Assembly (NCBI GenBank): GCA_963665295.1
Contig: OY762209.1
Span: forward strand, 5,344,001 to 5,408,000
Direction: 5' to 3'
From: Syntrophorhabdaceae bacterium
GTDB lineage: Bacteria > Desulfobacterota > Syntrophorhabdia > Syntrophorhabdales > Syntrophorhabdaceae
Length of the DNA stretch: 64,000 bases
Below the pieces are notes generated by a model, which was given only the letters and a program-made list of their open reading frames with translations, was not told the origin of the DNA and searched no databases. The position numbers and the translations under genes are program-made. How positions within the stretch are numbered: position 1 is the first letter of the stretch; each line of letters opens with the position of its first letter. Shown piece by piece: positions 21,054 to 30,266 of the stretch.

Positions 21054-21082
21054 TTGATCCCGGGAGACTCATGTGGTACAAT
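21054..21082 (+). promoter_or_regulatory. Sigma70-type promoter of the riboswitch/efflux operon
   Basis: TTGATC-N17-TACAAT with extended -10 TG, 9 nt before the aptamer. Confidence 0.7.
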
Positions 21083-21091
21083 GAAACAAGC

Positions 21092-21183
21092 AAAGGGGAG
21101 TAGCTTTTATCGGCAGCAGCGTCATTACGTCTGCATAGACAGACCGGGCTGCCGGTTAGGTAAAACTAACAAGCAAGACCTTT
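21092..21183 (+). ncRNA. yybP-ykoY manganese riboswitch aptamer
   Basis: AAAGGGGAGTAGC...GCAAGACCTTT (P1/L1), P3 CGGCAGC/GCTGCCG with L3 CGTCATTAC, GTCTG/CAGAC stem, P4 GTTAG/CTAAC; P2 reduced to a short linker. Confidence 0.92.
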
Positions 21184-21216
21184 ACCAGCAAGACTGGTAA
21201 AGGTCTTTTTTATTTT
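21176..21216 (+). terminator. Riboswitch expression platform terminator
   Basis: Perfect 13-bp stem AGACCTTTACCAG/CTGGTAAAGGTCT plus T tract; its 5' arm overlaps the aptamer P1 3' strand, so the two folds exclude each other (ON switch). Confidence 0.9.
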
Positions 21217-21245
21217 GTACAAAAAGGAGGCAAGGCAGGTATTCC

Positions 21246-21587
21246 ATGAATAAAAACAGCGCAGGAGGAGGAAGCGATAATTCCGTGAGAATTCGTCCCG
21301 TAGCCCCATGGCCGGCCTTCGCGTTCCCCCTTCTCTCGATCCTGCTCATTGTCATGAGCCTTGCACTCCCCGCAATGGACGCCCTATCCGGACCGGACGA
21401 CGGCAGGAGCGGCAGGTCGTACGAATCCGGCAGTTCGCCCGACGACTCCGACGTGGATATGGACGGCGCGGGGTTGCCCGTAATCCCCTTTCGAACCGTC
21501 TTCCTTGACAGGACCTTCCTTTACTGCGACGGTGAAGGGCTTCGCCCATGGAGCCGGGCCATCTCCCTCTACAAGCCGCCAAGATAG
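21246..21587 (+). CDS. Small membrane/leader protein upstream of the RND pump
   Basis: Hydrophobic N-terminal helix, Asp/Ser-rich middle, C-terminus ISLYKPPR*; start uncertain (21246 ATG or 21285 GTG). Confidence 0.55.
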   Translation: MNKNSAGGGSDNSVRIRPVAPWPAFAFPLLSILLIVMSLALPAMDALSGPDDGRSGRSYESGSSPDDSDVDMDGAGLPVIPFRTVFLDRTFLYCDGEGLRPWSRAISLYKPPR

Positions 21588-21717
21588 CCATATCCTTCTT
21601 CCGACACCCGCACAAACAGGCGCCGGGGCTTCCAGGCCCGGCTACCGATGCGACGCCGGTCCCGGATACATGTTCATTGCATAAAAAGATCACCAGCCGA
21701 TTCAGGAGGCAACATTA

Positions 21718-22959
21718 ATGACACATATGCTCGTATCTTTCCTATTTCTCTTATTTACCGCGTGGAGCGCCGTTATTGCCCTCGGGGCAACCAGGGACGA
21801 AGCGGTAAACACGGCGCTTAAGAACAACCCCGAGCTTCAGGCCCTGCGATATGAGGAGGAGGTCGCAAAAGCGCAACTGCAGAAAGCGAAGCTTCCTCTC
21901 CCCGCGAACCCGGTTGTGGGGGGCTCCCTGTCGAAAAAGGACAGACCCGCCGGTGATACGGGGAGCGGGAAATATACCAACTACGGCATCACCCTGTCCC
22001 AGGAATTCGAGATAGGGGGCCAGAGGGGTCTCCGGATAGACCTGGCCCAGAAGAATCTCTCGAAGGTCGGGTTCCTTATAAAGGACAGGGAGAGGGTTCT
22101 CACCTACGAAGTGAAGGACGCCTTCGCCCGGGCCCTTTCTCTCGGGAAGAGAGCGGAACTGGCGGGAAAAGTGGTGGGCTTGCAGGGAGAACTGCTTGAC
22201 TTCACGAGGATAAAATACAAGGCGGGAAGTGTTTCCGGCCTGGAGGTAAACCTCGCCGAGGTAGAACTGGGCAAGGCGAGAAGAGACCTCCTCACCGTGG
22301 AGAGGGAACTGAAAGAGGCCCTCGTCATGCTCCAGGGCCTTATGGGCATGAGGCCCGAGGCCTCCTTCATGGTTCGGGGCGAGTTGTCACCCGAGACTTA
22401 TGTCCTGCCCGACAAGGAGACCTTGAAGGAACGCGCCGCCATGACGAGACCGGACCTCAAGGCGTCCGTTGCGGAGGTTGACATCTCCGGTACGGCCGTG
22501 GACCTCGCGAAGAGGCAGGCCATACCCAACGTGACTTTCGGCGGTTTTCAGGCCAGGGACCAGGAACAATTCGACCGGGGCGTCCTCATGTCCGTCTCTA
22601 TCCCTCTTTTCGACAGGAAACAGGCGGAGAGAAAGACCGCCGAGGCCAGGGCGTTTCAGGCAAGGATAGCCCGATCAGGGGCTGAAAAGGGGCTCCTGAG
22701 GGAGATCGAAGGGACCTACAACAACCTCGTCCTCACCCTCGAGGAACTCGCGGTCTTTAAAAAGGACATCATCAATAAGTCGATTGAGACCCTGAACCTT
22801 CTCAACTTCGCGTTCAAGGAGGGCAAGGTCAGCTTTTTCGAGGTCAGGACCGCCCAGAAGGATACGCTGGAAATGCAGTTCGCCTATCTCGACACGGTAT
22901 TGCAGGCCGAGAGGTGGATATACGCGATCGAGAGGGCCACGGGAGGTACCGCACGATGA
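21718..22959 (+). CDS. czcC: Outer membrane efflux protein, TolC/CzcC family
   Basis: Signal peptide, ALKNNPEL, LSQEFEIGG, RPDL, SIPLFDR; first gene of a CBA operon. Confidence 0.88.
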   Translation: MTHMLVSFLFLLFTAWSAVIALGATRDEAVNTALKNNPELQALRYEEEVAKAQLQKAKLPLPANPVVGGSLSKKDRPAGDTGSGKYTNYGITLSQEFEIGGQRGLRIDLAQKNLSKVGFLIKDRERVLTYEVKDAFARALSLGKRAELAGKVVGLQGELLDFTRIKYKAGSVSGLEVNLAEVELGKARRDLLTVERELKEALVMLQGLMGMRPEASFMVRGELSPETYVLPDKETLKERAAMTRPDLKASVAEVDISGTAVDLAKRQAIPNVTFGGFQARDQEQFDRGVLMSVSIPLFDRKQAERKTAEARAFQARIARSGAEKGLLREIEGTYNNLVLTLEELAVFKKDIINKSIETLNLLNFAFKEGKVSFFEVRTAQKDTLEMQFAYLDTVLQAERWIYAIERATGGTAR

Positions 22960-24176
22960 AGGGATTTCTACTCGGACGAAAGAAACAGGTCGCCATCGTT
23001 ATTATATGCCTTCTTATCGCTTCCATATTCGGAGTCTCTATGGCTATCCGGAAGGGGTCGTCAAAAGGCGACGCCCTTCAAGGGGGCAAGGGGGGCGCGG
23101 CGGGAGAACCGGAGTCCGGCGTAGTCGTACTCCCTCCGGAAAAACTCAACGCCTCGGGTATAGAAGTGATCAAGGTCTCCCGTGAACCGGTCACCGCGCC
23201 CCTTATGGCCACCGCCGCCATCGAACTCAACGCGGACAGGACCTCCAGGATAAGCTCAAGGGTCGCGGGACGCATCGTGCGTCTTGCCGTATCCCAGGGA
23301 GACCGGGTGCGGCAGGGTCAGCCTCTCGCGACCATGGACACTGTCGAACTCGACCAGATATGGTCGGACTACAGGAAGAACACGGGAAGGTATGACCTCG
23401 CCCGGAAAAACCTCAAACGGGAGGAGGCCCTCTTTGAAAAGAACGTGGCCCCGGAAAAGGATGTACTCAAGGCGCGGCAGGAACTGAGCGAGGCTGAGGC
23501 AGACCTTACCCTCTCAAAGGAACGTTTTCGTCTCCTGGGGATCAATGCACTGGACACCCTCCGGAACGGGGATGTTCAAAGCCGGCCTCTCATCCCCATC
23601 ATCTCGTCGGTGGGAGGGGTCGTGATCGAGAAGTCGGTCACTCAGGGTGAGGTGGTAAACCCTGAAAAACTGCTCTTTGTCGTGGCCGACCTCACCACCC
23701 TGTGGGTGCTCGTGGATATTTACGAGAAGGACATGTCGCGCCTCAAGACGGGCGCGGTCGTCCATGTGTCTGTGAACGCCTTCCCGGACAAGACGTTCCG
23801 GGGCAGGATATCCTATATCGGTGACGTGGTTGACGAACGCACGAGGACTGTCAAGGCCCGCGTCACCATCGACAATACGGAAGGACACCTGAAACCGGGC
23901 ATGTTCGCCACCGTCTCCGTAGACTCCGATAAGGACGCCGTCACGGAAAAGGTTATCGCTGTTCCCGAGGAAGCCGTCCTCGTCGACGGGACGGACAGGT
24001 ACGTCTTTGTCCGCACGGGCGATGGCCGGTTCCGGCGCACGGACGTGGCCCTCGGACGCCCCATGGGCAAGCAGGTCGAGATAACCGGGGGGCTCTCCGA
24101 AGGGGATATGCTTGTGGTGAAAGGGACGTTTCCTCTCAAATCGGAGTACAAAAGACAGTCGCTCAGGGCCGAATAA
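22956..24176 (+). CDS. czcB: RND periplasmic adaptor, CzcB family
   Basis: N-terminal anchor, GDRVRQGQPL, ADLTTLWV, TRTVKAR, LKPGMF; ATGA overlap with the czcC stop. Confidence 0.9.
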   Translation: MKGFLLGRKKQVAIVIICLLIASIFGVSMAIRKGSSKGDALQGGKGGAAGEPESGVVVLPPEKLNASGIEVIKVSREPVTAPLMATAAIELNADRTSRISSRVAGRIVRLAVSQGDRVRQGQPLATMDTVELDQIWSDYRKNTGRYDLARKNLKREEALFEKNVAPEKDVLKARQELSEAEADLTLSKERFRLLGINALDTLRNGDVQSRPLIPIISSVGGVVIEKSVTQGEVVNPEKLLFVVADLTTLWVLVDIYEKDMSRLKTGAVVHVSVNAFPDKTFRGRISYIGDVVDERTRTVKARVTIDNTEGHLKPGMFATVSVDSDKDAVTEKVIAVPEEAVLVDGTDRYVFVRTGDGRFRRTDVALGRPMGKQVEITGGLSEGDMLVVKGTFPLKSEYKRQSLRAE

Positions 24177-24188
24177 GGAGGGGACACG

Positions 24189-27100
24189 ATGCAGAGAATT
24201 ATCGATTTTGTTCTGAAGCAGCGCCTCCTGGTGCTCCTTTGCCTGGGCCTCCTCGTTGCGGCGGGGCTCTTCAGTTACAAGACCATCTCCATCGACGCCT
24301 TTCCGGATGTGACCAACGTCCAGGTCCAGATCATCACCCAAACCCCCGGCATGTCCCCTCTCGAAACGGAGAGGTTCGTCACCGCCCCCATCGAGTTGCA
24401 GATGAGCGGCCTCACAGGACTCAAGGAGACAAGGTCCATATCGAAGTACGGCCTCTCTCTTATCACCCTTGTCTTTGAAGACAGGGTCGATGTCTACTTC
24501 GCCCGTCAGCTTGCCCTGGAACGTCTTATCGAGGTAAGGGACCGGCTCCCGAAGGGGGCGGACCCATCCCTTGGACCGGTTTCCACGGGTCTCGGTGAGA
24601 TATACCAGTACACCCTCGAAGGGAAGGGAAAGAGCCTCATGGAACTGAGGACCCTGCAGGATTGGGTAGTGAAGAAGGTCCTGAAGTCCGTCCCCGGAGT
24701 AATCGAAGTCAATTCCCACGGCGGAGACGTGAAGGAATACCAGGTCATCGTGAGTCCCGAAAAACTGATCAAATACAACCTTTCCCTGAAACATATCTTC
24801 GAGGCGGTGGCGCAGAATAACGCCAACGCGAGCGGCAGCTACATGAACATCGGCGGAGAAAGGTATGTCATAAGGGGCCTGGGGCTCCTCAAGACCCTGA
24901 ACGACATAGGCAATATCGTGGTTACGTCGTCCCGGGGAACGCCCGTGTTCGTAAAAGATATTGCCGACCTCAAACTCGGGCCCGCCTTCAGTCCCGGTGC
25001 GGCGGTACGGAACGGCGAGGAAGCGGTGGCGGGAATCGTCCTCCTTGTAAAGGGCGGCAATTCCATGGTGGTCGTCAAGAAGATAAAGGACAAGATAAAG
25101 GAGCTTCACAAGATGCTCCCCGACGGTGTCCGGACCGTTCCCTTCTATGACCGCGCCGAACTGGTGAAACGGGTGCTCTCCACCATCACGTGGGCCCTGG
25201 CGGAAGGTTCCGTCCTTGTCATTGTGGTGCTCTTCATATTTCTGGGAAGCGTGAGGACCGCCCTGGTGGTCACCTTCTCCCTGCCCCTCACCGTACTCCT
25301 CACATTCGTCATCATGAAACAGGCCGGGCTCACGGCAAACCTCATGTCCCTGGGAGGTCTTGCCATAGCGATCGGCATGATCGTGGACGGGGCCGTGGTT
25401 ATCGTGGAAAACGTGTACCGGGAACTCTCGGAGAATAAGGAGAAATCACGCACCCATATCGTGGCTGAGGCGGCAAAGGAAGTGGTAAGGCCCGTCTTTT
25501 TCGGGATATTGATCATTACCATCGTATTCCTGCCCCTCTTTACTCTCACCGACGTGGAGGGAAAAATGTTCATCCCCCTCGCCCTGACCGTGGTGATAGC
25601 CCTCGTAAGTTCCCTTGTGGTCTCCTTCGTGTTCGTTCCCGTTTTCTCCCTCTTCGTCCTGAAGCCGGGCAAGGAGCAGGACACCAGGCTCCTTGCCGCC
25701 ATCAAGCGGCGCTTCCGGCCCATACTCGACTGGGCGCTCTCGCACAGAAAGAAGGTAGCGGTTCTCTCGCTGGCGCTCCTTGGGGTAAGCCTCTGCCTGC
25801 TGCCCCTGATCGGCCGCGAGTTCATGCCCATCATGCAGGAGGGCGCCATCGTTATCCAGCCCATAAGGTTTCCGAGCGTCTCCCTGGAGAAATCCATAGA
25901 GATTGAAAAGCAGGTCCACAAGATCATCTTCTCCTTCCCCGAGGTGGAGACCATGGTCTCCAAATTGGGCGGTTCGGGCATTGCCACAGACTCCCAGGGA
26001 CCCGAGATTTCCGACCCTATTGTCACCCTCAAGCCTCGATCCCAATGGAAAACGGCAAAAACCCAGGAAGCCCTTATCGCGAAGATGCGTGAACGCCTCG
26101 AGGCGGCCCTGCCCGGAGTGGGCTTCAATTTCAGCCAGCCCATAGCCCTCAGGGTCGACGAGTTGATCTCGGGCGTTAAATCGCAGCTCGCCATAAAGAT
26201 ATTCGGCGATGACCTCGACGTCCTGAAGCAGAAAGCGGAGGAGATCGCGAAAATCATGTCTGCCGTGAAAGGCACCACGGACCTCCGGGTGGAGCAGGTA
26301 TCCGGACAGCCCTACCTCCACATCGATTTCGACAGGAATGCGACGGCACGGTACGGCATCAATATATCGGATGTCCAGGAGATCATAGAGACGGCGATCC
26401 GGGGGGGTCAGCCCACCGAATTGTTCGAGGGAGACAAAAGGTTCGCCGTGAGGATACGGTTCCCCGAGGAAAAACGGAATAATGCGGAAACCATAGGCAA
26501 ACTGCTCGTCCCCGTACAGGAAGGCCGGGGCATACCCTTGAATCAGGTGGCAACCCTGAACCTTCTCGAAGGCCCCAACCAGATAAGCCGGGAGAACGGC
26601 CAGAGGAGGATCGTCATCGAGTGTAACCTGAAAGGCCGCGATATGGGGAGTTTTGTCGAAGAGGCCCAGAAAAAAATCGGTGGAAAGGTGACCCTGCCTG
26701 CGGGGTACACCATGAAATGGGGTGGACAATTTGAAAACCAGCAACGGGCCATGAAGCGCCTTATGGTCATCGTGCCCATCACCCTGGTTCTCATATTCGT
26801 CCTTCTCTATTTTACCTTCAACTCCGTAAAGAACGCCCTCCTCATCATTTTGAACATCCCCTTCGCGCTCATAGGAGGGATAGTCGCCCTCTTCCTCTCG
26901 GGCCAGTACCTGAGCGTCCCCGCGTCCGTGGGATTTATCGCTCTTTTCGGGGTGGCGGCCCTCAACGGGATCGTTCTGGTTTCATGTGTCAATCAACTCA
27001 GAAGGGACGGAATGCCCCTGGACCAGGCAGTAAGGACCGGCACGGAGCTTCGCTTGAGGCCGGTGCTCATGACCGCGTCCGTGACCCTCCTCGGCCTTAT

Positions 27101-27254
27101 ACCCCTGCTCCTCTCGTCGGGGATAGGGTCGGAAATACAGAAGCCTCTCGCAGTGGTGGTGGTGGGTGGTCTGATAACCTCGACGCTGCTCACTATAGTC
27201 GTATTACCGACCTTTTACAAGTGGTTCGAGGAAAATGACGAGCAAGGGTCATGA
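24189..27254 (+). CDS. czcA: Heavy-metal efflux RND permease, CusA/CzcA family
   Basis: IDAFPDVTNVQVQI, GLGEIYQY, ANLMSLGG...VDGAVVIVEN, RLRPVLMTA, GSEIQKPLA. Confidence 0.95.
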   Translation: MQRIIDFVLKQRLLVLLCLGLLVAAGLFSYKTISIDAFPDVTNVQVQIITQTPGMSPLETERFVTAPIELQMSGLTGLKETRSISKYGLSLITLVFEDRVDVYFARQLALERLIEVRDRLPKGADPSLGPVSTGLGEIYQYTLEGKGKSLMELRTLQDWVVKKVLKSVPGVIEVNSHGGDVKEYQVIVSPEKLIKYNLSLKHIFEAVAQNNANASGSYMNIGGERYVIRGLGLLKTLNDIGNIVVTSSRGTPVFVKDIADLKLGPAFSPGAAVRNGEEAVAGIVLLVKGGNSMVVVKKIKDKIKELHKMLPDGVRTVPFYDRAELVKRVLSTITWALAEGSVLVIVVLFIFLGSVRTALVVTFSLPLTVLLTFVIMKQAGLTANLMSLGGLAIAIGMIVDGAVVIVENVYRELSENKEKSRTHIVAEAAKEVVRPVFFGILIITIVFLPLFTLTDVEGKMFIPLALTVVIALVSSLVVSFVFVPVFSLFVLKPGKEQDTRLLAAIKRRFRPILDWALSHRKKVAVLSLALLGVSLCLLPLIGREFMPIMQEGAIVIQPIRFPSVSLEKSIEIEKQVHKIIFSFPEVETMVSKLGGSGIATDSQGPEISDPIVTLKPRSQWKTAKTQEALIAKMRERLEAALPGVGFNFSQPIALRVDELISGVKSQLAIKIFGDDLDVLKQKAEEIAKIMSAVKGTTDLRVEQVSGQPYLHIDFDRNATARYGINISDVQEIIETAIRGGQPTELFEGDKRFAVRIRFPEEKRNNAETIGKLLVPVQEGRGIPLNQVATLNLLEGPNQISRENGQRRIVIECNLKGRDMGSFVEEAQKKIGGKVTLPAGYTMKWGGQFENQQRAMKRLMVIVPITLVLIFVLLYFTFNSVKNALLIILNIPFALIGGIVALFLSGQYLSVPASVGFIALFGVAALNGIVLVSCVNQLRRDGMPLDQAVRTGTELRLRPVLMTASVTLLGLIPLLLSSGIGSEIQKPLAVVVVGGLITSTLLTIVVLPTFYKWFEENDEQGS

Positions 27255-27293
27255 AACCATGGAAAGTACACAAGACGAATCCGAGGAGAAAAG

Positions 27294-27635
27294 ATGAAAG
27301 AGATCAAGGCGATACTGCAACCATTCATGTTGTCGAAGGTGGCGTGGGCCCTTCAACAAGTCCCTGACTTTCCGGGGATGACCGTGTCCAGGGTCCAGGG
27401 CTTCGGCCGGGGAAAGGCAAAGGGCGCGCCCGATGCGATCATGGAGGACCTCATCGACTACGTGCCCAGGGTAAGGATAGAGATAGTCGTGAAGGACGAT
27501 ATGGTCGAAAAGGTCGTGCGGACCATCGCGCAGAACGCCCATACGGGAAACAAGGGCGACGGCAAGGTATTTGTCTGCAATGTGGAGCATATCATAAGGG
27601 TGAGGACGGGCGAAACGAATGAAAACGCCCTCTAG
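27294..27635 (+). CDS. PII-family protein
   Basis: MKEIKAI, GMTVSRVQGFGR, AHTGNKGDGKVFV, RVRTGE. Confidence 0.92.
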   Translation: MKEIKAILQPFMLSKVAWALQQVPDFPGMTVSRVQGFGRGKAKGAPDAIMEDLIDYVPRVRIEIVVKDDMVEKVVRTIAQNAHTGNKGDGKVFVCNVEHIIRVRTGETNENAL

Positions 27636-27685: not shown

Positions 27686-29440
27686 TCAGCCTTCCAGCGT
27701 CCTTTCGATGATCTCGGCAAGCTCACGCCTGCTTACGGTCTTCGAGGTAAAGGCCCGGATGCCCGCCTCGGCAATCATGGCCGGGGTGATGGTCTCGTTG
27801 AAACCGGAACAGAGGATAACGGGTATATCGGGTCTGATCTCTTTCACCTTCTTCGCGAGGTCGATCCCCGTCATGTGGGGCATGGTATAATCCGTAATGA
27901 CGAGATCGAACTGGTCCGCCTTTGCCTCGAAAGTCCGCATCGCCTCCGCGCCGCTCGTGTGAGCGACCACGTGGTGGCCAAGGTTCCTGAGCCTTGTCGA
28001 ATTCATCTCCACGAGCATATCCTCGTCGTCCACAAAGAGAATCCGCGCCTTCCTCCCCGGGGTGGCGCCGGACTCGCCCGCCTTTGAAACGGCCCTCCCC
28101 ACGACCCTGGGCAGATAGACGCAAAAGACCGACCCGTGGCCGGGTGTGCTTCGGACCGCAATGTGTCCCTCGTGGCCCTTCACAATCCCGTGCACCACGG
28201 AAAGCCCCATCCCTGTTCCGTGACCGGCCTTTTTCGTGGTAAAAAAGGGATCGAATATCTTTTCCAGGAGGTCGTGGGCAATTCCGCACCCCGTGTCCCC
28301 CACAGAAAGCTCTACGTAGGGACCCGGTTTTATCCCGCACTCCAGGGCTTCCGCCTCGGAAAGGTCCCTGTCCGTGAGGCTCACTTCAAGTACGCCACCT
28401 CTTTCCCGCATGGAGTGGGCGGCATTCGTGCAAAGGTTCATGATTATCTGGTGTAACTGGACCTGGTCCGCAAGTATTCTGTCGTGGACCGTGAAAGGCT
28501 TCTTCCTGATTTCCACGGTGGACGGAATGGCGGGACCGAGAAGCTTGAGCGCCTCTTCAATGACCTGCCCCGCGGCGACCTCTTTGCGCTCGGTCTTTGT
28601 CCGGCGGCTGAAGGTAAGGATCTGTTTTACAAGCCCCCGGCCCCGCATGGCGCCCTTGAGCACCAGCGTGAGCTTGCGGTGCAGGGGACTGTCGGGCGGC
28701 GTCTCTTCGAGGGCCATCTCCGTGAAACCGATTATGCCGGCAAGGATATTGTTGAAGTCATGAGCGACGCCTCCCGCAAGAGTGCCCAAGGCCTCCATCT
28801 TGTGGGACTGGCGAAGCTGCTCCTCGACTTTCACCCGTTGCTCCGTCTCAGCCCGGAGGGTCTCCAACGCTTCCATCAACTCACCTGTCCGCTCTTCCAC
28901 CCTCAGCTCGATCTCACGCTTCGACCTTTCCAGGGCGTCACGCATTTCGGCGAGGTTCATCACCATGGCGTTGAAGGACTCGGAGAACTCTCCCATGAAG
29001 TCCACCCGTTGGGTAAAATCCCCCCTGGCCACCGCCTGGGTCTGCCAGGTAAGATGACGGAGGTTCGCCTGGAGGGCCTTGAGACTGCCCGCCATGGCGC
29101 CCGTAGCCTTGAGAGGGTGCGAAAGGTCACCGTTACCCAGGGCAATGGTGAAACGCTGTACCGCCAGCATGTCCGCGAGGAGACGGGCCACCTTGTCCTC
29201 ATAGGCCGGTCCGCCCACCGATTTCCCGGGCAAGTCCGTGGCTTTCGACCAGATAAGGTCTATGGCGTCGAATATCCTGCCTGCCTCGTTCCCGTCGGCA
29301 GTCCCATGGGCGCCGGTTCCCGCCGACCGGCCGAGGGCCGCTTCCATGGTTCGACTCAAACGGGCGTAGTTTTCGGGTGTTTTGGTTTCAATCGCAATAT
29401 CGAGCTGTCGTCTCAGTTCAACCAGGATATCCTCATGCAT
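27686..29440 (-). CDS. Soluble hybrid histidine kinase (HAMP-HisKA-HATPase-REC)
   Basis: AHDFNN H-box, [14 protein letters not shown], receiver FVDDE/ITDYTMP; no TM segment; start at MHEDIL. Confidence 0.92.
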   Translation of the reverse strand: MHEDILVELRRQLDIAIETKTPENYARLSRTMEAALGRSAGTGAHGTADGNEAGRIFDAIDLIWSKATDLPGKSVGGPAYEDKVARLLADMLAVQRFTIALGNGDLSHPLKATGAMAGSLKALQANLRHLTWQTQAVARGDFTQRVDFMGEFSESFNAMVMNLAEMRDALERSKREIELRVEERTGELMEALETLRAETEQRVKVEEQLRQSHKMEALGTLAGGVAHDFNNILAGIIGFTEMALEETPPDSPLHRKLTLVLKGAMRGRGLVKQILTFSRRTKTERKEVAAGQVIEEALKLLGPAIPSTVEIRKKPFTVHDRILADQVQLHQIIMNLCTNAAHSMRERGGVLEVSLTDRDLSEAEALECGIKPGPYVELSVGDTGCGIAHDLLEKIFDPFFTTKKAGHGTGMGLSVVHGIVKGHEGHIAVRSTPGHGSVFCVYLPRVVGRAVSKAGESGATPGRKARILFVDDEDMLVEMNSTRLRNLGHHVVAHTSGAEAMRTFEAKADQFDLVITDYTMPHMTGIDLAKKVKEIRPDIPVILCSGFNETITPAMIAEAGIRAFTSKTVSRRELAEIIERTLEG

Positions 29441-29475
29441 TCCTTGCTTTTCTCCTTTTCCGGATCGGTCCCGGG

Positions 29476-30024
29476 TCACGGACTTGTTGAGACCTGCGCC
29501 TCGGCATCGAGCATCGTCGCGATAAAACGGCAGGTGCGGTCTCCGGTACACCAACAGTCCACCTCTTTGACCTCGAACCGTTTCCCGGAAAATCTTTCCA
29601 GCAACCCCGCAATGAAACCTTCATCGTATACGCAGATCTCATAGTCGAGTTCGGGAAGGCCGGAACATTCGAGGTCCTCCGAAACGGTAAATACAAAGGA
29701 ACCTCGCACAGGGTCCGATTGTTCGATACGGAGTATGCCGATGGCCATTTCCCTGAAAACCCTCTGCAGTTCGCTCAGAAACGTGGGGAGGTCCGTGATG
29801 CCGCCCAGGATGTTCTCACAGAATTCCATGCCTGAAAGCTTACCCGCTTCATAAAAGATCCGGTCCGTCTTCTCGGCGCCGAAGTGCTGTTCCATTACAT
29901 CCCTGAAGGAAAACTGCATCAGCCTGTATATTTCGAGCCTTGTATCTTTTCCGAGGTTCGGGCGTCCCGATTCAAGATCCCCCAGAAGCCCCCATGAAAA
30001 TTGATACTTACGGTCCACGTCCAC
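29476..30024 (-). CDS. V4R domain protein
   Basis: EDLECSGLP, ICVYDEGFIAGLLE, EVDCWCTGDRTCRF; GTG start after GGAGG (ORF is open from 30120). Confidence 0.88.
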   Translation of the reverse strand: MDVDRKYQFSWGLLGDLESGRPNLGKDTRLEIYRLMQFSFRDVMEQHFGAEKTDRIFYEAGKLSGMEFCENILGGITDLPTFLSELQRVFREMAIGILRIEQSDPVRGSFVFTVSEDLECSGLPELDYEICVYDEGFIAGLLERFSGKRFEVKEVDCWCTGDRTCRFIATMLDAEAQVSTSP

Positions 30025-30266
30025 TATGCCTCCAAGTCTGTCGTGCCGGCCGCTCTTCCGGTCCGTCCGGGGATATGCGGTTTCGCCAAAGAACAGTATC
30101 TTATTGTACTCACAATCCATCCTTCATAGCAATCGTGCGAAGACCGGGGCCGTTTCCGGGAAAGTCTTGCGGTCCGCCGGGCTCAATGCTTATATAGACT
30201 GTAAGGAGCGCGGGAGCACCTGCCTCCTATACCCCACAATACACTATAAGACCATTGGGAGGACTT

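Follow-up and report, generated by a model that had tools for sequence, protein, structure and literature searches.

A predicted manganese riboswitch ahead of an HME3b-type RND pump operon, a candidate Mn2+ efflux system

What does a tripartite efflux pump export when the RNA switch in front of its operon belongs to a family that responds to manganese? The question is raised by a 64,000-nucleotide stretch of a Syntrophorhabdaceae genome (assembly GCA_963665295.1, contig OY762209.1, positions 5,344,001 to 5,408,000; hereafter the window), in which a yybP-ykoY-type riboswitch precedes genes for a leader open reading frame (ORF), the three components of a resistance-nodulation-division (RND) pump belonging to the HME (heavy metal efflux) family, and a PII-like protein. 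An initial annotation, made from the sequence, had proposed a Mn-induced and possibly Mn-exporting RND system. Of these two parts, induction is well supported; export is plausible and gains from the recurrence of the pairing in other genomes, but it is set back by a two-component-linked paralog with the same site and by the many loci of this pump subfamily that are free of the riboswitch. We put the probability that the pump exports Mn2+ as its physiological cargo at roughly 55%. Below, G000 is the genome bearing the window, G001 is a genome of the same genus, and L-numbers denote single loci.

Riboswitch upstream of the pump operon

At its gathering cut-offs, Rfam gave no match of any kind in the window. 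The candidate aptamer scored 9.6 bits (E 3.4) with RF00080, whose gathering score is 45 bits, and the Infernal check proposed with the initial annotation was thus negative. On nine related loci the same cut-off returned tRNA only and missed the copies at L124, L134, and L135. As a control, RF00080 was run on 14 genomes; it reached its cut-off in just 2 of them, and the G000 copy linked to an ATPase gene got 17 bits. Because of this weak showing, we rejected Rfam as arbiter of riboswitch identity and built our own covariance models. R1 was trained on 14 yybP-ykoY copies linked to ATPase or UPF0016 genes, none of them czc-linked, and R2 was trained on 21 copies that include czc-linked ones.

The predicted yybP-ykoY identity rests on R1, which gave the window aptamer 87.5 bits (E 1.9e-19; training copies span 56 to 93 bits) and the orthologous aptamer of G001 82.7 bits. 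We attribute the miss by RF00080 to the model more than to the RNA. Helices P1.1 (21092-21096/21179-21183), P1.2 (21103-21106/21171-21174), P3 (21111-21154), and P4 (21155-21170) consist of Watson-Crick pairs throughout. The annotated aptamer is confirmed. Loop L3 carries C-A at 21123-21124, and the L1 motif with its 3' AGA is present; both the C40-A41 and the P1/P3 features of the family are found. P2 and P4 are dispensable, and the L3 adenine (A41) binds Mn (PMC6649816, partial text). The yoaB riboswitch of Lactococcus lactis and the mgtA riboswitch of Streptococcus pneumoniae have the same L1 and L3 motifs, the invariant C-A in L3, and an intrinsic terminator that shares the 3' strand of P1.1. 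The window aptamer differs from them in being a three-way junction without P2 (mgtA lacks P4), in scoring far below the Rfam cut-off, and in its target, a tripartite RND pump instead of an inner-membrane exporter.

A pattern search found aptamer matches in 11 of 41 related genomes and none with the reversed control. Two of these copies are czc-linked; the others stand before ORFs that we read as P-type ATPases (checked with Pfam for the G000 copy only). Across 30 copies, 18 of the 23 aptamer pairs vary on both sides, a count biased upward, the alignment having been fitted to the structure. In G001, P3.2 and the loops are altered with pairing retained, and riboswitch and terminator are conserved. 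R2 located three copies in G000, one before this pump and the others before a P-type ATPase gene and a UPF0016/GDT1 gene. MntP was not found in G000 (98% complete), and none of its five full, near-equal TerC-family genes lies near a yybP-ykoY copy.

L1 and P1.1 lend their 3' strand to the terminator as its 5' arm. The annotated consumption of the P1 3' strand therefore stands, with a stem of 14 pairs instead of the 13 given. In metal-free folding, the terminator (OFF) state reached -47.1 kcal/mol and the aptamer (ON) state -34.5 kcal/mol, making OFF more stable by 12.6 kcal/mol. The terminator of the L. lactis riboswitch likewise takes up the P1.1 strand (PMC11087558, partial text). The promoter-like site that had been annotated was also found (9 of 12 consensus matches), but it is statistically weak alone, with two such sites against 1.1 expected in shuffles. 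Hexamers at a similar spot, judged by eye, precede both other G000 aptamer copies and the G001 copy.

Given the intact aptamer, the P1.1-consuming terminator as in L. lactis, the conservation within the genus, and the canonical targets of the other two G000 copies, Mn2+-dependent read-through into the operon is very likely. By the known behavior of the family, transcription would start near 21089. At low cytoplasmic Mn2+ the 14-bp terminator would form from the P1.1 3' strand and stop RNA polymerase; when Mn2+ rises, the ion would bind the docked L1-L3 site (A21124) and hold P1.1, allowing read-through into leader-czcC-czcB-czcA-PII.

An alternative is that the riboswitch controls the leader ORF only, or is a left-over, and that czcCBA has its own promoter. 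In its favor are the 130-nt gap between the leader and czcC and the orthologous operons in G007 and G567, which lack the riboswitch. However, on the + strand we found no promoter-like or terminator-like site in 21200-21990, which covers the interval (21590-21718) where the initial annotation had considered an independent promoter. Several Burkholderiales loci run from riboswitch to czcC without any leader, and the aptamer is intact in two species. We regard a separate czcCBA promoter as very improbable. A GC-rich hairpin without a U-tract, seen by eye at 21621-21641 (+) in the leader-czcC gap, is a possible pause site.

Table 1. Features of the riboswitch-pump locus (window positions) and of related copies elsewhere in G000 (C1 positions)
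Feature	Position	Strand	Remarks
Sigma-70-type promoter-like site (-35/extended -10)	21054..21082	+	TTGATC-17-TACAAT with TG extension; 9 nt 5' of P1.1
Predicted yybP-ykoY (Mn2+) aptamer	21089..21184	+	A41-equivalent = 21124
Intrinsic terminator, stem plus U-tract	21175..21216 (stem 21175-21207)	+	Mutually exclusive with P1.1
Leader ORF, 113 aa	21246..21587	+	Hydrophobic N-terminal segment, acidic middle, C-terminal KPP motif; third-position GC (GC3) 0.70
czcC-like outer-membrane channel	21718..22959	+	PF02321 (OEP)
czcB-like periplasmic adaptor	22956..24176	+	HlyD_D23; likely ATG 22956 overlaps czcC stop; frame open from 22914
HME-RND pump (czcA position), HME3b/HmyA clade	24189..27254	+	TIGR00914 1200.5 bits vs cut-off 701.45
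PII-like protein, PII-NG type	27294..27635	+	PF00543 (P-II)
yybP-ykoY riboswitch and terminator before P-type cation ATPase	G000 C1:4577579-4577676	+	Below Rfam cut-off
yybP-ykoY riboswitch and terminator before UPF0016/GDT1 gene	G000 C1:1149931-1150021	-	Below Rfam cut-off
czcBA paralog (L042), without czcC or PII	G000 C1:1785445-1789745	-	Directly behind response regulator/sensor kinase pair

Clade and periplasmic site of the pump

The protein families found (Table 1) bear out the annotated gene order, leader-czcC-czcB-czcA-PII on one strand, and a TIGR00914 score above cut-off with adaptor and outer-membrane genes alongside places the pump among the HME-RND proteins. The label "CzcCBA-type" has to be revised, as both tree and transmembrane helix 4 (TM4) make the pump HME3b/HmyA-like and not CzcA proper. 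It is 52% identical to HmyA of Cupriavidus metallidurans CH34, 47% to CzcA, and 38 to 46% to the other CH34 pumps. In a FastTree phylogeny of 116 proteins it groups with HmyA (support 0.947), apart from CzcA, CnrA/NccA, ZneA, and CusA/SilA, on a branch deep inside the HmyA clade, some members of which carry other TM4 variants. For the remaining chromid pumps in our trees, the names are our presumed assignments from position, except for ZneA, whose score matches its PDB entry. Three things led us to take the CH34 chromid gene at 693.6 kb as HmyA: a truncated start, the residues of its site, and tables in PMC2864759 and PMC7060636 (both partial texts).

TM4 of the window pump reads AIG..DG..VEN, the HME3b motif with A replacing S after DG. 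An HME1 (CzcA proper) identity was rejected because TM4 has AIG and not the DFG of DFG-x3-DGA-x3-VEN and because the clade is separate. A Cu(I)/Ag(I) identity of the HME4 (CusA/SilA) type was also rejected: at the positions of the CusA methionine triad, which we take to be M573/M623/M672, the window pump has Q557, I607, and E658.

The site residues of the window pump are E137, D601, E606, D609, D657, and E658, and the five proximal-site positions of ZneA correspond to E137, D601, D609, L654, and E658 (E-D-D-L-E). E606 and D657 are additional. Of close homologues, 40 of 40 retain D657, as do 65 of 70 Burkholderiales HME3b proteins; CzcA lacks both D657 and an acidic residue at 606/607, which are HME3b features. 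Five of the site positions are carboxylates. Because the site is carboxylate-rich and without the CusA methionines, it points to a divalent, oxygen-liganded cargo, among which Mn would not be singled out. In the alignment, no site residue distinguishes riboswitch-bearing HME3b pumps from the others. The AlphaFold model of the window CzcA was poor (pLDDT 60, pTM 0.47) and was not used for site geometry.

Two Cupriavidus systems are useful for comparison. HmyFCBA (HME3b; Rmet_4119-4123) belongs to the same clade, has the AIG..DG..VEN TM4, and carries a small ORF ending in PP before its C gene. It differs in that its upstream DNA in CH34, Cupriavidus EM10, and Ralstonia carries no riboswitch and in a site that reads E-D-T-D-E. 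According to PMC7060636 (partial text), Hmy has no known role; in CH34, where hmyA is interrupted, no annotated hmy gene was up-regulated under a metal mix (PMC11647585, partial text). CzcICBA (HME1) of C. metallidurans pMOL30 resembles the window operon in its C-B-A order, small upstream ORF, and E-D-D-L-E site, but it has DFG in TM4, falls in a separate clade, is regulated by CzcRS, and exports Co, Zn, and Cd.

Recurrence of the pairing and rival readings

The same locus of G001 has kept the riboswitch, the leader, czcC-czcB-czcA, and PII. Among metagenome loci, the riboswitch lies directly 5' of czcC in 6 of 72, with a seventh cut by a contig end. L124, L126, and L133 are near-copies, and these riboswitch-pump loci are of Burkholderiales type (G212 is 91% identical to L134). 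We then sampled Burkholderiales evenly (301 genomes); HME3b genes occur in 66 of them (74 rows merged into 71 loci). R2 detected a same-strand upstream riboswitch at 9 of the 71 loci: directly before the HME3b operon at L170, L178, L227, L228, and L231, and with an intervening terC(-usp) gene at L171, L172, L197, and L212. terC, which precedes the pump in these four, is a known target of yybP-ykoY.

By contrast, R2 found the riboswitch at none of 47 CzcA-type control loci from the same sample (50 rows, less the unpublished genome G067 and two at contig ends; assembled without a per-locus TM4 check). After removal of the five HME3b loci with <3 kb of upstream DNA, Fisher's test gave p = 0.010 for 9/66 versus 0/46, a significance inflated by kinship. 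G067 is counted only in the sample tallies of the Burkholderiales HME3b, CzcA-type control, and riboswitch-side surveys. Of the pump subfamilies tested, a single one, itself uncharacterised, shows the pairing, and this recurrence strengthens the Mn-export reading; the appearance of the pairing in distant bacteria suggests that HME3b pumps may clear Mn across the whole cell envelope.

Within the HME3b tree, riboswitch-bearing pumps are scattered. In a quick IQ-TREE search on 27 rows picked by hand from 127, the riboswitch-bearing branches force at least 7 changes; shuffles averaged 8.4, and 100 of 500 were as low, so these hand-picked rows show no clustering. A single-protein scan of genome contigs returned 22 loci; most, at about 44% identity, belong to other clades, and no convincing riboswitch accompanies any of the 22.

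When the riboswitch is taken as the starting point, czc proves a minor target. We searched 150 Burkholderiales genomes and looked at the best 30 of 40 matches: TerC came first behind the riboswitch in 24, LysR in 3, and an ATPase, CitMHS, and an unassigned gene in 1 each; czcC held that place in none. The LysR regulator genes stand directly behind the riboswitch at L321, L324, and L333, the CitMHS (citrate-metal transporter) family gene is at L340, and several genomes have back-to-back riboswitch pairs. At the riboswitch-HME3b operons L171, L197, L212, and L135, SbtA (a Na+/bicarbonate transporter) adjoins, together with LysR and TerC-Usp; this grouping is possibly an alkaline-pH or bicarbonate cluster.

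Observations of several kinds, collected in this and the next two paragraphs, weigh against Mn2+ export. Our family survey gave 8 close czcC matches in 6 of 69 genomes, with the riboswitch only in G000 and G001. In Burkholderiales, 57 of the 66 HME3b loci with enough upstream DNA lack it. R2 found it at 0 of 20 other loci from the phylum of the window (25 rows, of which 20 were fetched, four were already in the set, and one begins at a contig end). With the direct cases alone, 5/66 versus 0/46, Fisher's test was not significant (p = 0.077, again with kinship inflating significance).

An alternative hypothesis is that the riboswitch does induce the operon but that the pump is a broad divalent exporter (Co, Zn, Cd, Fe, Ca), Mn2+ being a proxy for metal overload or mismetallation. 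The five proximal positions are identical in CzcA, which exports Zn, Co, and Cd. The G000 paralog CzcA (Table 1) is 84% identical to the window pump with identical site residues, and the G001 paralog (82%) also lies behind a response regulator/sensor kinase pair. For the Geobacter PII-NG-czcABC operon, Fur regulation and induction by Co are reported (PMC7726332, partial text), and some yybP-ykoY-family aptamers respond in vitro to Cd, Co, Ni, Fe, or Ca too (PMC6649816, partial text), so the family is not strictly Mn-specific. However, a proxy signal would suit CzcA too, and none of the CzcA-type controls has the riboswitch; in addition, HME3b adds D657 and the acidic residue at 606/607 to the CzcA site. 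On balance we consider a broad exporter unlikely.

The neighbors of the Burkholderiales HME3b loci include NhaR-like LysR genes (6 of 71; we assigned the NhaR label ourselves), two-component pairs (5 of 71), and SbtA (3 of 71). These LysR genes, accompanied by an M48 peptidase, together with SbtA, TerC-Usp, and cation:proton antiporters, favor a further hypothesis, that HME3b serves alkaline-pH or Na+ (monovalent) homeostasis and uses the riboswitch since cytosolic Mn2+ rises at alkaline pH. Escherichia coli alx, which senses alkalinity via Mn, is a precedent (PMC12153347, partial text), and HME3b is labelled "monovalent." That label comes from the TM4 motif alone, though, and the acidic TM4 residues are assigned to proton relay and not to metal choice (PMC3637150, partial text). 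Moreover, the periplasmic site is as carboxylate-rich as those of ZneA and CzcA, and none of those neighbor genes adjoins the window operon. A role in pH or Na+ homeostasis is thus quite improbable.

For Mn2+ export, we postulate that the HME3b pump would be powered by the proton gradient (D400, E407, R957), take divalent Mn2+ at the carboxylate-rich periplasmic site, and send it out through CzcB and CzcC. It would supply the step across the outer membrane that follows the inner-membrane exporters (P-type ATPase, UPF0016) under the other two riboswitch copies of G000, and the G000 czcBA paralog perhaps borrows the CzcC of the window. Here we infer the cargo as well as the roles of the leader and the PII-NG protein. 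More tentatively, and at somewhat less than even odds, HME3b pumps could be the missing trans-envelope Mn2+ exporters of Gram-negatives, repeatedly placed under a Mn riboswitch (Syntrophorhabdaceae, Burkholderiales), with one sensor and a two-step relay in G000 and the PP-ending leader as a second, translation-coupled layer.

The NiCo riboswitch targets czcD, a cation diffusion facilitator gene. Review PMC11672702 (partial text) has this riboswitch preceding czcABC, and "RND" is absent from its covered half. The yybP-ykoY riboswitch and the HME3b pump are two known parts in a real, conserved pairing not found in print: we found no report linking yybP-ykoY to an RND pump or Mn to HME3b, although the gene lists of the 2015 and 2018 primary riboswitch papers, outside our coverage, may hold such genes. 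In the main text of PMC8632737, a 2021 review on Mn homeostasis in bacteria, there is no "RND," "TolC," or "outer membrane"; the main text of PMC12153347 lacks "RND," and the covered part of PMC8277102 lacks "manganese." Supplement file 1 of PMC3766115, on regulons, has no "czc," "cus," "COG3696," or "tolC," a weak negative, as "Geobacter" and "Syntroph" are also absent. The failure of the Rfam model on these aptamers may explain why the pairing was overlooked, and it leaves regulon surveys of yybP-ykoY incomplete. The Mn exporters reported under yybP-ykoY are all inner-membrane proteins. A Mn-exporting RND pump, if true, would add an outer-membrane step, provide the first ligand clue for HME3b, and overturn the motif-derived "monovalent" label.

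Leader ORF, PII protein, and surroundings of the operon

The leader is akin to the pump genes in GC3 and has an orthologue in G001. Its layout is CzcI/HmyF/DUF2946-like, with a single Cys, no CxxC, and a C-terminal KPPR, and it had no Pfam or NCBIfam match (PF11162 included). In the ESM Atlas it fell among clusters without names, where leads to CzcI and DUF6769 at 0.90 were weak, with recognition below threshold. Many relatives have a small ORF with a (R/K/Q)PP end before czcC, whether or not a riboswitch is present, and the leader thus has no fixed link to the riboswitch; the G567 leader, where the riboswitch is absent, has a CxxC. The CruR/DUF2946 upstream ORF of Bordetella shares the exported-type leader, the PP-motif end, and the long intergenic gap behind it, and its C-terminal RAPP arrests ribosomes (PMC9426467, partial text). 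The window leader differs in having neither CxxC nor RAPP nor a PF11162 match and in preceding an efflux pump. A function as an arrest peptide is possible.

In an alignment, the T-loop of the window PII has diverged from those of the canonical PII proteins of G000. PII-NG beside czcABC is a known link (PMC7726332, partial text), and in Geobacter sulfurreducens (GSU2134-2137) a PII-NG gene is clustered with a czc-type pump, a likeness in gene clustering alone.

The hpf gene lies divergent to the operon, and a hybrid histidine kinase gene (27686-29554, -) converges on it. The initial annotation had seen no metal-sensing regulator next to the operon; this kinase does adjoin it, though its domains (HAMP, HisKA, HATPase, REC) bear no metal-sensor hallmark. 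A V4R-domain protein and the kinase together span 27686-30120 (-), and a similar kinase occupies the same place in G001. Elsewhere in the family, G009 has tandem yybP-ykoY aptamers before a P-type ATPase gene (L072:1497-1779, -). Related czcCBA copies in G002 (L040) and G034 (L039) are broken by stops or frameshifts, and L039 also has an ATPase-linked riboswitch, placed about 2 kb away from czcC on the other strand.

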